64,000 bases of DNA from a virus (taxonomy: Duplodnaviria > Heunggongvirae > Uroviricota > Caudoviricetes), in the IMG/VR virus record IMGVR_UViG_2534681834_000006. One strand, 5' to 3'. This document shows, one piece after another, positions 11,764-18,532 of this stretch. The position numbers and the translations under genes are program-made. The notes under the pieces are model-generated. The model did not search any database. It had not been told where the DNA came from and saw only the letters and a program-made list of their open reading frames with translations. The stretch's first letter is position 1, and every line of letters begins with the position of its first letter.

Positions 11764-12303
11764 CTACCACCAACTGCTAGCTTTCTTCTCTCTAGCTTTT
11801 CCTTCGCTTTGCAGTAAATCTTTACTTCCTGTAGAAATATTTCTATTTGCATCAGCCTCAGACTGAATTACATCTGTCTTAGCTGCTCTCTCCTTCAACT
11901 CCTGCTCTATAAAATCGTTTTCTCGCTGGACACGAGCCGCTTTTGCTTGCAGTTCGAGTTTCATGCTTTCGAGTTGCAGCTTGCGAAGCTCATCCTCATA
12001 AGCTTGATCTCGCTTCTTGTCATTTGCTAGCTCGGCTTCTCGTTTCGCTCTACGTTCATTTTCTGCAGCAACACGCTGTTTTTCGCGTGCAGCAGCGGCA
12101 GATGCTGCTTTTTCTCTTCTAATACGTTCAGCTTGTGCTTGTTGGCGAATAAGTTCTTTTCTGGCATCCTCAGCTTGCTGCTCTTTAGCTCGCCCTTCAT
12201 TTTCCGCTTGAGCAATAGCAGCAATTTGACTTTGCAACGAGTTAGCCAAGGCAGTGCCTACACTAAACGTAGAAAAGATTAGAAATAAAATAATTTTATT
12301 CAT
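11764..12303 (-). CDS. secreted coiled-coil protein, TolA domain II-like (Ala/Glu/Lys/Arg-rich)
   Basis: N-terminal signal peptide MNKIILFLIFSTFSVGTALA then long charged helical repeat region. Confidence 0.55.
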   Translation of the reverse strand: MNKIILFLIFSTFSVGTALANSLQSQIAAIAQAENEGRAKEQQAEDARKELIRQQAQAERIRREKAASAAAAREKQRVAAENERRAKREAELANDKKRDQAYEDELRKLQLESMKLELQAKAARVQRENDFIEQELKERAAKTDVIQSEADANRNISTGSKDLLQSEGKAREKKASSWW

Positions 12304-12306
12304 AAA

Positions 12307-12828
12307 TTATTTCTTTTCTGGACAAGTAGCATTTGGCTGAATTCGAGTTTCATTATCTTTAGTTGAAATAAGCACAGCAAGCCCCGTTGTAAACTGGCAT
12401 GCTTTACCAACTTGAGTTGAAGTGAACACCTTAGTTCCTTCTTTATAAGTCAGTGAAACACCTTCAACAATTGTTTTATCACTAACCAAAGAACCAGCCG
12501 CTGCACCAAGAGCCGCACCACCAGTACCGCCAGCTACAGCACCCAGTGTCGATGTGCCTTTAACATTATAACCGGCAACGCCCCCAGCAACAGCTCCCAG
12601 TACCGCACCAAATGTCTGTGCCGCTTCTTTATTAGCTTTATTATCAACTTTCACTTTAGCTGGAAGCACAGAGATAATATTGACTGTCTTTGTTTCCTGC
12701 TTCGAATTCAATTGAGCGGTATCATAAACATCGGCAGCATAATCAGCACCGCTAGATTGACACCCAGAAAGAAGAATTGCAGATACAACAAGAGCGCATA
12801 AAGTATACTTTTTAGACATAAGAATCAT
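12307..12828 (-). CDS. outer-membrane lipoprotein with glycine-zipper (SlyB/Pcp-like)
   Basis: Lipobox LLSGC; Gly-zipper GAVLGAVAGGVAGY...GAVAGGTGGAALGAAAGS. Confidence 0.6.
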   Translation of the reverse strand: MILMSKKYTLCALVVSAILLSGCQSSGADYAADVYDTAQLNSKQETKTVNIISVLPAKVKVDNKANKEAAQTFGAVLGAVAGGVAGYNVKGTSTLGAVAGGTGGAALGAAAGSLVSDKTIVEGVSLTYKEGTKVFTSTQVGKACQFTTGLAVLISTKDNETRIQPNATCPEKK

Positions 12829-13109
12829 CCCAGAAAAACAAAAACCGGCGAGAAGTTACCACAAGAACGGAAAGTAAACAAGAATACTCCCATTGACTTA
12901 TATCAATTAATCAACTTTTTATAAGCTATCCCTAACTTATTGTGTATAGCTGAAAAGTCAGAGACAAGTTCACCATCTGCATTATTTCTTAAGTTAATAG
13001 TTTATTGCTAACTTAATTTATGTATCGACTATTGATATCCATCTTAAAGTTACAATATCCATCTGCATTATTTTTCATCACAAATAATATATCTATTGCA
13101 CGACACTAA

Positions 13110-13126
13110 TCTGCTCTAATAAATTT
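13110..13126 (+). promoter_or_regulatory. C1 repressor operator-like 17-mer upstream of the c4/icd/ant promoter
   Basis: tctgctctaataaattt, 15/17 to ATTGCTCTAATAAATTT. Confidence 0.5.
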
Positions 13127-13164
13127 GTATTTTTAAGTCGCGAATGCTATCTTTTTGCATCATA

Positions 13165-13193
13165 TTGACCTTTTAATCGTTCAGGCTTATAGT
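13165..13193 (+). promoter_or_regulatory. sigma70-type promoter for the c4-icd-ant transcript
   Basis: TTGACC - 17 nt - TATAGT. Confidence 0.5.
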
Positions 13194-13299
13194 TTCGCCG
13201 TCGTAGCAAATTCTGCGACCGGGTTTAGCAGCCTGAATACTTACGCGGACAACCGCAGATTTCCGATATTGCGGTATTTTTGTGTCCGTAAACCACGTT

Positions 13300-13400
13300 A
13301 CGCCCGAATTATGGTGGGGCGTGATGGGGAGGCTTCGGCCTGCTGGTTTCGTAAGTGCCAGTCTGCTAACCCCGTCACGTCCTGCCACCTGTTTAGCAGC
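13300..13400 (+). ncRNA. candidate c4-like antisense immunity RNA (approximate bounds)
   Basis: Position between promoter and icd; gtttagcag elements at 13223 and 13391 with a near-complementary ctgctaac at 13365; placement from P1 immI knowledge. Confidence 0.25.
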
Positions 13401-13438
13401 GGGTCGCAGGTTGTTTATCAACTTACGAGGCCGTAACT

Positions 13439-13660
13439 ATGGTTAATGCCAATCCTTGCGCACGCCAAGAATTCATCTGGCGTTTCTATTCCTGCAAAAA
13501 ACACCACTATCACTTCGTCATCGCAGCAACAGAAGACGAAGCACGCTCTCAATTGCCTGATGGCCCCTGCATTTTTACTGCCCGTTTTTCAACTAACTCG
13601 CGCAATTCACTTAGTTACTGGAACCTCCCCTTCTCTGCCGACGTTCAGGGGGTTTTATGA
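13439..13660 (+). CDS. icd: small protein upstream of and overlapping ant (icd-like)
   Basis: 73-aa ORF overlapping the ant start, as in the P1 immI operon. Confidence 0.4.
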   Translation: MVNANPCARQEFIWRFYSCKKHHYHFVIAATEDEARSQLPDGPCIFTARFSTNSRNSLSYWNLPFSADVQGVL

Positions 13661-14700
13661 AAAAACCTCTCGTCACCCGTAATGACATAGCCGAAGCGAT
13701 CGCCCTGCATACTGCCTGTATGCCGACACGGGAGATCCCCGGCGCAATTGCCAACTATTTCATGATAACCAGACGTTTTTATACCCGAACAGATAAGGCT
13801 GTGATCAACAGGCTACTGATAGCCGAGATCAGGGATTATTTGATTGAACAAGGACGTCTACGTTACGCAACGGTGGCAGCAGAAATGAGAAAGGAGGCAC
13901 ATAGAATGACCAGTAATAATTTGAATGTTAAAAAACCAGCATCTGTTGCTTCAGCTACGCCATCACCAGCTGTGAATGTTATCTCCAACACTGGAGACAC
14001 AATCGACAGCCAGACGCTGTTAAAGATGGTCAATGAAGCGCGTAAGTTATGTGGGGAACCAGAGGTTCGGAACAACAAATTCATCAAAAAAATACTCGAC
14101 GAATTAGAAGGTGAGGACGGTTACACAAAAAGTGCAACCGTGCCGCCAGGTGGCGGTACGCCTATGGTTGTCATAACCATGACCTACAAACAAGCCCTGC
14201 GAGTCGCCGCGCGCGAGTCAAAAGCAGTCCGCCGTTCGCTGATCGACAAACTGGAAGAATTGCAGCAGGCAAACTCCCCTGCCCCATCGATCCCCCAAAC
14301 ATTACCAGACGCTCTACGCCTGGCTGCCGAGTTGGCAGAACAGAAAATGCAGTTGGAACAACAGCTGGTGGCCGCAGCCCCTAAAGTCGATTTTGCCGAC
14401 CGGGTATCAGCGGCTAATGGAATCCTGATCGGGAACTTTGCAAAGGTCGTTGGACTTAAGCAAAACGCCCTTTTCTCATGGTTGCGCCAGAACGGCATTC
14501 TCATGGCTTTTGGTGCGCGCAAAAACGTACCGCGCCAACAGTACATCAACGCCGGGTATTTCACGGTGAAAGAAGTGGTGCTGGATGATGAAAATGGCTA
14601 CCAGATACGGCTGACGCCCCAATTAACGGGTAAAGGCCAGCAGTGGTTAACTCGCAAGCTACTTGATGCTGGTTTGTTAAAACCAGTAGCAATAGGTTAA
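13657..14700 (+). CDS. ant: phage antirepressor (KilAC C-terminal domain)
   Basis: C-terminal ...LPDALRLAAELAEQK...APKVDFADRVSAANGILIGNFAKVVGLKQNALFSWLRQNGIL... shared with the next gene. Confidence 0.7.
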   Translation: MKKPLVTRNDIAEAIALHTACMPTREIPGAIANYFMITRRFYTRTDKAVINRLLIAEIRDYLIEQGRLRYATVAAEMRKEAHRMTSNNLNVKKPASVASATPSPAVNVISNTGDTIDSQTLLKMVNEARKLCGEPEVRNNKFIKKILDELEGEDGYTKSATVPPGGGTPMVVITMTYKQALRVAARESKAVRRSLIDKLEELQQANSPAPSIPQTLPDALRLAAELAEQKMQLEQQLVAAAPKVDFADRVSAANGILIGNFAKVVGLKQNALFSWLRQNGILMAFGARKNVPRQQYINAGYFTVKEVVLDDENGYQIRLTPQLTGKGQQWLTRKLLDAGLLKPVAIG

Positions 14701-16835: not shown

Positions 16836-17016
16836 TACAATCGTTGCGGGTGCTTGAGGCTATCTGCTTCAGGCATTACCCGAAAAGCAGATAGAAGAAA
16901 GCCCCAGATAACATTACGCGTCCTGCAAGACGCTTAACATTAATCTGAGGCCATATCTATGCTTAGCATACGTAGATTAGCCTCTTACCGACCAAAAGGT
17001 CAAGGAGAAGCAGGCT

Positions 17017-17172
17017 ATGAAGCAGCATAAAGCGATATTAATCGCTCTGATCGTCATCTGTTTAACCGTCATTGTGACGGCACTGGTAACGAGGAAAGAC
17101 CTCTGCGAGGTACGAATCCGAACCGGCCAGACGGAGGTCACTGTCTTCACAGCCTACGAATCTGAAAGGTAA
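17017..17172 (+). CDS. hok: Hok/Gef-family type I toxin
   Basis: 51 aa MKQHKAILIALIVICLTVIVTALVTRKDLCEVRIRTGQTEVTVFTAYESER after aaggagaag RBS; absent from the ORF track (below its length cut-off). Confidence 0.75.
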   Translation: MKQHKAILIALIVICLTVIVTALVTRKDLCEVRIRTGQTEVTVFTAYESER

Positions 17173-17194: not shown

Positions 17195-18532
17195 CATAAG
17201 CGCTAACTTAAGGGTTGTGGTATTACGCCTGATATGATTTAACGTGCCGATGAATTACTCTCACGATAACTGGTCAGCAATTCTGGCCCATATTGGTAAG
17301 CCCGAAGAACTGGATACTTCGGCACGTAATGCCGGGGCTCTAACCCGCCGCCGCGAAATTCGTGATGCTGCAACTCTGCTACGTCTGGGGCTGGCTTACG
17401 GCCCCGGGGGGATGTCATTACGTGAAGTCACTGCATGGGCTCAGCTCCATGACGTTGCAACATTATCTGACGTGGCTCTCCTGAAGCGGCTGCGGAATGC
17501 CGCCGACTGGTTTGGCATACTTGCCGCACAAACACTTGCTGTACGCGCCGCAGTTACGGGTTGTACAAGCGGAAAGAGATTGCGTCTTGTCGATGGAACA
17601 GCAATCAGTGCGCCCGGGGGCGGCAGCGCTGAATGGCGACTACATATGGGATATGATCCTCATACCTGTCAGTTCACTGATTTTGAGCTAACCGACAGCA
17701 GAGACGCTGAACGGCTGGACCGATTTGCGCAAACGGCAGACGAGATACGCATTGCTGACCGGGGATTCGGTTCGCGTCCCGAATGTATCCGCTCACTTGC
17801 TTTTGGAGAAGCTGATTATATCGTCCGGGTTCACTGGCGAGGATTGCGCTGGTTAACTGCAGAAGGAATGCGCTTTGACATGATGGGTTTTCTGCGCGGG
17901 CTGGATTGCGGTAAGAACGGTGAAACCACTGTAATGATAGGCAATTCAGGTAATAAAAAAGCCGGAGCTCCCTTTCCGGCACGTCTCATTGCCGTATCAC
18001 TTCCTCCCGAAAAAGCATTAATCAGTAAAACCCGACTGCTCAGCGAGAATCGTCGAAAAGGACGAGTAGTTCAGGCGGAAACGCTGGAAGCAGCGGGCCA
18101 TGTGCTATTGCTAACATCATTACCGGAAGATGAATATTCAGCAGAGCAAGTGGCTGATTGTTACCGTCTGCGATGGCAAATTGAACTGGCTTTTAAGCGG
18201 CTCAAAAGTTTGCTGCACCTGGATGCTTTGCGTGCAAAGGAACCTGAACTCGCGAAAGCGTGGATATTTGCTAATCTACTCGCCGCATTTTTAATTGACG
18301 ACATAATCCAGCCATCGCTGGATTTCCCCCCAGAAGTGCCGGATCCGAAAAGAAGAACTAACTCGTTGTGGAGAATAACAAAAATGGTCATCTGGAGCTT
18401 ACAGGTGGCCATTCGTGGGACAGTATCCCTGACAGCCTACAAAACGCAATTGAAGAACGCGAGGCATCGTCTTAACGAGGCACCGAGGCGTCGCATTCTT
18501 CAGATGGTTCAACCCTTAAGTTAGCGCTTATG
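17195..18532 (+). mobile_element. IS186 (IS4 family), complete copy with target-site duplication
   Basis: Terminal inverted repeats cataagcgctaacttaagggttg / caacccttaagttagcgcttatg; flanking direct repeat ggagagatcc; target GGGG-N6-CCCC. Confidence 0.85.
17250..18524 (+). CDS. insL: IS186 transposase
   Basis: MNYSHDNWSAILAHIGKPEELDTSARNAG... matches IS186 InsL as I recall it; alternative GTG at 17244. Confidence 0.85.
   Translation: MNYSHDNWSAILAHIGKPEELDTSARNAGALTRRREIRDAATLLRLGLAYGPGGMSLREVTAWAQLHDVATLSDVALLKRLRNAADWFGILAAQTLAVRAAVTGCTSGKRLRLVDGTAISAPGGGSAEWRLHMGYDPHTCQFTDFELTDSRDAERLDRFAQTADEIRIADRGFGSRPECIRSLAFGEADYIVRVHWRGLRWLTAEGMRFDMMGFLRGLDCGKNGETTVMIGNSGNKKAGAPFPARLIAVSLPPEKALISKTRLLSENRRKGRVVQAETLEAAGHVLLLTSLPEDEYSAEQVADCYRLRWQIELAFKRLKSLLHLDALRAKEPELAKAWIFANLLAAFLIDDIIQPSLDFPPEVPDPKRRTNSLWRITKMVIWSLQVAIRGTVSLTAYKTQLKNARHRLNEAPRRRILQMVQPLS

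Follow-up and report, generated by a model that had tools for sequence, protein, structure and literature searches.

A P1/P7-type C4 antisense RNA switch of a common allelic form upstream of icd and ant in a phage-plasmid

The stretch of phage DNA analysed here (the window, 64 000 nucleotides from a member of the Caudoviricetes; IMG/VR record IMGVR_UViG_2534681834_000006) carries a promoter and a long leader with repeated short elements ahead of icd and ant, and the question raised by this locus (13165-13660) is what that leader does. A preliminary description, made from the sequence alone, proposed that a c4-like antisense RNA is processed from the leader and blocks icd/ant translation. This reading is borne out by two Rfam matches and by homology to P1 and P7. 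In an Rfam scan of the whole window the C4 family (RF01695) matches 13307-13392 on the + strand over the full-length model with 70.8 bits (gathering score 45 bits), and the c4-a1b1 family (RF03163, 'a1, b1 targets of C4') matches 13187-13239 with 55.3 bits (gathering score 46.7 bits).

A megablast search with 13100-13700 matched 24 phage records, all of them P1-like. The identities are 98.3-98.7% for SJ46 and three 'P1' isolates, 95.5% for P7, 93.9% for P1 and 91.7% for a partial match to D6. The annotated immI features of P1 and P7 transfer one to one onto the window with none missing, in the order C1 operator, two c4 promoters, a1/b1, 77-nt C4, a2/b2, icd and ant1/ant2. The region is an already known P1/P7-type C4 antisense RNA switch in a common allelic form, and we hold with high confidence that the immI immunity operon of a P1/P7-family phage-plasmid is its best explanation. 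The preliminary account was right in outline and incomplete in that it missed a second complementary pair (b), the C1 operator with a second promoter, and a terminator-like hairpin in the leader.

Organization of the operon and its surroundings

The C1 repressor operator (Oc4, formerly Op51; TCTGCTCTAATAAATTT) was located at 13110-13126 (+) by homology to the P7 and P1 annotation, outside the coordinates covered by the preliminary description. It is exactly the P7 operator (L002 1511-1527) and shares 15 of 17 positions with that of P1 (L001 1499-1515). The operator overlaps the -35 element TTGTAT of P2c4 (formerly P51a; 13125-13153, +; -10 element TATCTT), a sequence which is identical to that of P1 (L001 1514-1542) and which, by homology, probably acts as a promoter. 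The promoter that had been noticed earlier, TTGACC-17-TATAGT, is real: it lies at 13165-13193 (+), agrees with the consensus at ten of 12 positions, is the sole promoter-like site found on the + strand within 12800-13800 in a consensus scan, and aligns with the annotated P1c4 (formerly P51b) of P1 (L001 1554-1582). As is characteristic of RF01695, and as judged by alignment to the P1/P7 annotation, C4 thus lies on the same strand as its targets in the leader of a c4-icd-ant operon served by a C1-controlled promoter and a second promoter.

Downstream of the leader, icd (13439-13660, +) encodes a 73-residue cell-division inhibitor that matches NCBIfam phage_ICD_like with 52.7 bits against a threshold of 25 and shares 96% of its residues with P1 Icd and 99% with P7 Icd. 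Its stop codon overlaps the start of ant1 in the sequence ATGA (13657-13660). The antirepressor ant1 (13657-14700, +; 347 residues) has a Pfam ANT/KilAC domain (E = 5e-31), and ant2 begins at an in-frame internal start at 13906, an offset of 249 nt from ant1 as in the P1 and P7 annotation. Both icd and ant are intact, and kilA and repL come next, as in P1 and P7.

The surroundings resemble P7 on the left. The left flank of immI (11764-12828, -) carries upf50.5 (a lipoprotein with a weak TraT-like match) and upf50.0 (DUF5384), as in P7, whereas P1 has the superimmunity genes simABC in this place. Directly after repL there is a hok/sok-type toxin-antitoxin locus (16848-17172), comprising an Rfam sok match of 114.9 bits at 16848-17022 and a 51-residue Hok-like open reading frame at 17017-17172; MokW is annotated at this position in MH422554, and rapA/rapB are found there in P7. 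Homology to the closest P1-like phages ends near 17195, and a 426-residue open reading frame immediately after the hok locus (17244-18524) looks like an insertion-sequence transposase. Further along, Rfam identifies three tRNA genes (35043-35115, 35121-35193 and 37402-37474). Genes for tRNAs are known in P1-family phages.

The C4 RNA, its targets and the leader

The mature C4 RNA (77 nt, 13313-13389, +) was placed by the Rfam match, with ends assigned by homology to the P1 RNA, and these ends are in register with the P1 misc_RNA (L001 1702-1778). RNA folding, which had been proposed as a check, gives a structure of -45.7 kcal/mol with a 17-bp closing stem enclosing two hairpins, and the C4 RNAs of P1, P7 and D6 have the same dot-bracket structure. 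Of the nine nucleotides in the loop of the second hairpin, seven belong to the recognition sequence b' (CGUAAGU, 13350-13356, +), and the 7-nt single-stranded joiner consists entirely of a' (CUGCUAA, 13363-13369, +). The molecule therefore has the structural marks of RF01695: a length of about 77 nt, a long closing stem, two hairpins, b' in a loop and a' in the joiner.

The a elements had already been picked out in the preliminary description. Its repeat GTTTAGCAG is present at 13223-13231 and 13391-13399, and occurs three times on both strands of the window together against 0.49 expected, a count reached in none of 100 shuffles. The element CTGCTAAC is also there, starting at 13363 and not at 13365 as given, and 'near-complementary' was a fair term for it, as CUGCUAA forms seven contiguous Watson-Crick pairs with UUAGCAG. 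The second set of elements, which was missed, consists of ACTTACG at 13239 and 13421 and its complement CGTAAGT at 13350. The composite TTAGCAG-N(7-22)-ACTTACG occurs twice in the window against 0.01 expected.

The downstream copies are homologous to the annotated targets of P1. The a2 target (UUAGCAG, 13393-13399, +; P1 'target site a2') begins 4 nt after the 3' end of C4, and the b2 target (ACUUACG, with pairing continuing through the icd Shine-Dalgarno sequence; 13421-13431, +; P1 'target site b2') follows it. As in RF01695, a2 and b2 are complementary to a' and b', and b2 lies at the icd ribosome-binding site. It is the b pair and not the a pair that covers the Shine-Dalgarno sequence: the predicted b'-b2 duplex extends to up to 11 bp (5'-ACUUACGAGGC-3' with 5'-GUUUCGUAAGU-3', -14.4 kcal/mol) and includes GAGG at 13427-13430, 8 nt upstream of the icd ATG. 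The flanking nucleotides behind the extension to 11 bp are invariant in the family.

The target-pairing prediction that had been suggested thus gives stable pairing between segments, and the energetic support for pairing consists of duplex calculations on isolated segments. When C4 and the icd initiation region were folded together with RNAcofold, no pairs formed between the two molecules (ddG 0.0). This result is expected because the loop-to-strand contacts cross the stem of C4 itself and are pseudoknot-like, which places them outside the scope of the program.

The leader measures about 239 nt from approximately 13200 to the icd ATG at 13439, in agreement with the 240 nt given earlier. Its first element is a hairpin (GUCGUAG...CUGCGAC, 13200-13219, +) present both in the Rfam c4-a1b1 consensus structure and in the minimum-free-energy fold. 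This is followed by the a1 target (UUAGCAG, 13225-13231, +), which is complementary to a' and homologous to the P1 'putative a1 target site', and by the b1 target (ACUUACG, 13239-13245, +), which is complementary to b', homologous to P1 b1 and unpaired in the minimum-free-energy fold of the leader. Upstream a1/b1 copies of this kind are a further mark of RF01695, and here they are covered by the RF03163 match above its threshold. In the P1 annotation a1 and b1 are labelled only as 'putative' targets.

A terminator-like hairpin (13252-13275), followed by AUUUUUG to 13282 (+), was found in the leader fold and matches the terminator of the isrK model. It is absent from the list of a simple terminator scan, probably because its loop exceeds the 8-nt limit of that scan. 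The position of such a hairpin between the promoter and c4 was counted against the immI explanation. The leader fold contained no convincing competing (antiterminator) helix through which C4 bound at b1 could switch this hairpin.

The leader also resembles IsrK. Against the Rfam isrK model (RF01394) the segment 13200-13281 gives an end-to-end match (47.9 bits, E = 4e-9) that covers the first hairpin, the a1 hairpin, the single-stranded b1 linker and the hairpin at 13252-13275 with AUUUUUG. We regard this as resemblance and not as membership of the family, the score being below the gathering score of 50 bits. The IsrK RNA of Salmonella Gifsy-1 is a 77-nt terminated leader RNA that acts in cis and in trans upstream of a small open reading frame coupled to an antirepressor (PMC4825925). 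It shares with the window leader the two hairpins, the linker and, in the window as a terminator-like structure, the third hairpin, as well as the position upstream of a small open reading frame translationally coupled to an antirepressor (PMC4825925). The two systems differ in that Gifsy-1 has no room for a c4 between isrK and orf45, which starts at nt 107, and in that IsrK activates translation whereas C4 represses it. The IsrK paper (PMC4825925) makes no mention of C4 or P1.

Covariation and allele types among relatives

Among the observations that would count against an antisense RNA, the preliminary description named elements that are not complementary in relatives. To find relatives, IMG/VR was scanned for exact matches to the 5' half of C4, which is conserved, and at least 120 loci were returned. 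The sample comprises 129 copies (120 listed IMG/VR loci, eight GenBank phages and the window), 123 of which have the full leader, and 54 distinct sequences were aligned. Variation among them is concentrated in the recognition elements, as three short blocks per element. The four intermolecular helices a'-a2, b'-b2, a'-a1 and b'-b1 are all 100% paired in the 54 distinct sequences, so the elements are complementary in relatives as well. Control alignments with slid partners give 25-53% pairing for the four helices; for a'-a2 and b'-b2, sliding the partner by one to three columns reduces overall pairing to 33-53%.

Compensatory changes are seen at eight of the 14 pairs of a'-a2 and b'-b2 (six of seven b pairs and two of seven a pairs), and the a'-a1 and b'-b1 helices behave in the same way (two a pairs and six of seven b pairs). 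The upstream targets a1/b1 thus keep their complementarity to C4 no less strictly than a2/b2. Of the 254 target sets that could be read in the 129 copies, 253 show perfect complementarity to the C4 of the same copy. The covariation counts refer to sequences and not to independent events, as alleles are shared by descent and by recombination. Even so, selection for pairing is needed to explain why two 'a' and six 'b' alleles have each changed in a coordinated way at three sites. The internal helices of C4 are also 100% paired in the 54 sequences but are almost invariant, so that covariation is little informative about them. The two leader hairpins (13200-13219 and 13252-13275) each have 99.7% of cells paired in the same set, with almost no variation in the second.

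The sole mismatched set belongs to one IMG/VR locus (L048, IMGVR_UViG_2565956613_000015, minus strand), in which b1 and b' are of the ACGAAT type and b2, about 100 nt after the C4 core, is of the P1 type GTTAGT. From its sequence this locus looks like a single-crossover recombinant with the crossover between a2 and b2, and the prediction is that its own C4 no longer acts on it at the ribosome-binding site.

Two 'a' alleles are found, UUAGCAG/CUGCUAA in P7, SJ46 and the window, and UUGACAG/CUGUCAA in P1 and D6. The 'b' target blocks of the known phages are GATTGT (P7), ACTTAC (D6, SJ46 and the window) and GTTAGT (P1), and other relatives have ACGAAT, GTACAT or ACTTGT, which makes six in all among the matches listed. 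Eleven of the 12 possible a/b combinations are seen among the 129 copies. The window has the P7 'a' with the D6 'b', as does SJ46, and this is the second commonest combination (21/129). The window leader is also widespread in Escherichia coli and Salmonella plasmids: 571 PLSDB plasmid records have a match to the segment 13200-13445, 117 of them at an identity of 99% or more, and the identity is 100% in every one of the 12 listed.

Comparison with the individual phages places the window closest to Salmonella phage SJ46 (KU760857), which has an identical C4 (77/77), agrees with it in the a and b alleles at each of the three sites and shows no detectable difference in the regulatory region; c4 and icd are unannotated in its record. 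P7 (AF503408, with c4 annotated as misc_RNA) shares the C1 operator, the 'a' allele and 73 of the 77 C4 nucleotides, but has the 'b' block GATTGT in place of ACTTAC, changed coordinately in b1, b' and b2. P1 (AF234172), in which the C4 system was experimentally defined, has the same order of features as the window and differs in both alleles (C4 69/77 identical). D6 (MF356679) shares the 'b' allele (ACTTAC/GUAAGU) and 74 of the 77 C4 nucleotides, whereas its 'a' allele is of the P1 type and its Icd is only 56% identical. Its c4-icd module lies after repL and has a different, Roi-like antirepressor under its control.

The differences in alleles are reflected in the predicted energies. On the window targets the summed a2 and b2 duplex energy is -23.7 kcal/mol for the cognate C4, -18.5 kcal/mol for a D6-type C4, -13.5 kcal/mol for a P7-type C4 and -8.3 kcal/mol for a P1-type C4. 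For b'-b2 taken by itself, the P7 C4 reaches -4.2 kcal/mol on the window target against -14.4 kcal/mol for the cognate RNA. On the basis of these energies the window immI is predicted to be heteroimmune towards P1, with cross-repression by P7 or D6 C4 incomplete or absent. Full repression of the window should come only from a C4 of its own (SJ46-like) type, and the C4 of P1 should give none.

Between two and four c4-icd modules are found on each of six IMG/VR contigs: one has four (L023/L057/L104/L125), two have three (L020/L081/L108 and L071/L097/L126) and three have two (L060/L068, L110/L114 and L103/L115). The copies that reside together all differ in their a/b combination. With random draws this would be expected with a probability of about 0.11, which is not significant, so that the differing alleles are only suggestive of selection for orthogonality.

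Proposed mechanism, alternatives and implications

The mechanism established for P1 and P7 is set out, citing Citron & Schuster 1990, in a 2025 review (PMC12197685) and also in PMC8198154, and the review attributes heteroimmunity to P1/P7 c4, an RNA of 77 nt that acts in trans (PMC12197685). The sequence features, fold, complementarity and covariation observed directly in the window and its relatives allow the same mechanism to be proposed here, with expression, processing by RNase P, action in trans, the coupling of ant to icd and the immunity phenotype attributed by homology. Transcription from P1c4 and from the C1-controlled P2c4 would run through the structured leader into c4, icd and ant1/ant2, and the 77-nt C4 would, as in P1 and P7, be excised from this same transcript. 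The excised RNA would expose b' in its hairpin loop and a' in its single-stranded joiner, and by analogy with P1 and P7 these would pair in trans with b2 and a2 of the mRNA. The b2 duplex would cover the icd Shine-Dalgarno sequence and leave icd untranslated. As ant1 overlaps the icd stop codon and, from P1 and P7, probably depends on icd translation, no antirepressor would then be made. C1 would stay active in its absence and lysogeny would be kept, with the identity of a' and b' setting the immunity type. In work by Hartmann et al. in 1995 and Biere et al. in 1992, RNase P is said to make the 5' end of C4, and blocked icd translation reportedly leads to premature transcription termination before ant.

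The sar RNA of P22 immI offers a useful comparison. [quoted passage not shown] C4 is unlike sar in that it lies on the same strand as its target and pairs through two short loops, and there is no sequence relationship between the two. What they share is that a small RNA blocks translation of the antirepressor (ant) mRNA (PMC12197685).

Three other readings of the region were weighed against that of a trans-acting antisense RNA. The C4 segment might act only in cis, with the unprocessed leader folding onto its own a2 and b2 in the manner of structure A of IsrK-orf45. C4 and its targets do lie close together on one transcript, a2 starting only 4 nt after C4, the IsrK leader works partly by intramolecular pairing (PMC4825925), and sequence analysis cannot separate pairing in cis from pairing in trans. 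The description of P1/P7 c4 as trans-acting, in the review (PMC12197685) and in the P1 annotation, nevertheless argues for trans action. The C4 of the window differs from those of P1 and P7 only in recognition nucleotides. The contigs with two to four modules, which always differ in their alleles, fit the avoidance of cross-talk in trans, and given the probability quoted above they are only suggestive. Purely cis action is accordingly considered very improbable.

A second reading takes the repeats as DNA binding sites for a protein regulator and not as RNA pairing partners. It draws on the two direct copies of a 7-9-nt motif that flank the region and on the presence of a genuine protein operator, that of C1, just upstream. 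Such sites would lead one to expect a1 and a2 to change together; they would not predict a reverse-complementary third copy that matches at both sets of targets in all but one of the readable cases, nor that the complementary copies should fall exactly on the stretches that the Rfam C4 structure leaves unpaired. Its probability is negligible.

The remaining reading, in which the region encodes a protein and the repeats are incidental, takes its support from annotation. The leader contains three overlapping open reading frames (13155-13436, +; 13173-13421, -; and 13282-13446, +), and coding sequences have been annotated here in X15639 ('c4: CDS') and, over the c4 RNA gene, as 'hypothetical protein' in phi456 (Orf29; L005 438-608) and JL22 (gp42; L007 439-609). 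None of the three leader frames has a Pfam match, all three are disrupted by a 1-nt indel polymorphism carried by 19 of the 54 distinct relatives, and the counterpart of the frame at 13282 varies in length from 24 to 55 codons among relatives. The substitutions fall in three mutually complementary blocks, the signature of RNA pairing and not of codons. We therefore give the protein reading next to no weight; these same observations uphold the earlier remark that the frames are probably not coding. The old 'c4: CDS' of X15639 is best read as a mis-annotation, and phi456 Orf29 and JL22 gp42 are probably spurious annotations.

Returning to the antisense RNA, the strict conservation of a1 and b1 calls for comment. 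Their complementarity to C4 is maintained although a crossover between the leader and c4 would spare repression at a2/b2, and the short leader may therefore be a partner of C4. As a hypothesis only, the short leader RNA (13200 to about 13282) may be a C4 decoy or a feedback element. The fuller proposal, that the leader serves as a decoy or sensor of C4 level which tunes the amount of free C4, and that the a/b loops form an address code letting up to four modules coexist, is put forward as a tentative possibility that we think somewhat unlikely as a whole. These observations on a1/b1 and on the allele code concern the C4 family and not the window locus.

For annotation, the analysis means that neither the open reading frames of the leader nor the coding sequences listed at this position as 'hypothetical protein' in phi456 and JL22 should count as genes, and that the window can be annotated as a P1/P7-like phage-plasmid whose secondary immunity circuit is intact. 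From the assigned immI specificity, which combines the P7 'a' and the D6 'b', heteroimmunity is expected towards P1 and possibly also towards P7. For the family as a whole, the natural covariation seen in the survey of relatives is unusually clean evidence that RNA-RNA recognition follows a two-contact code.
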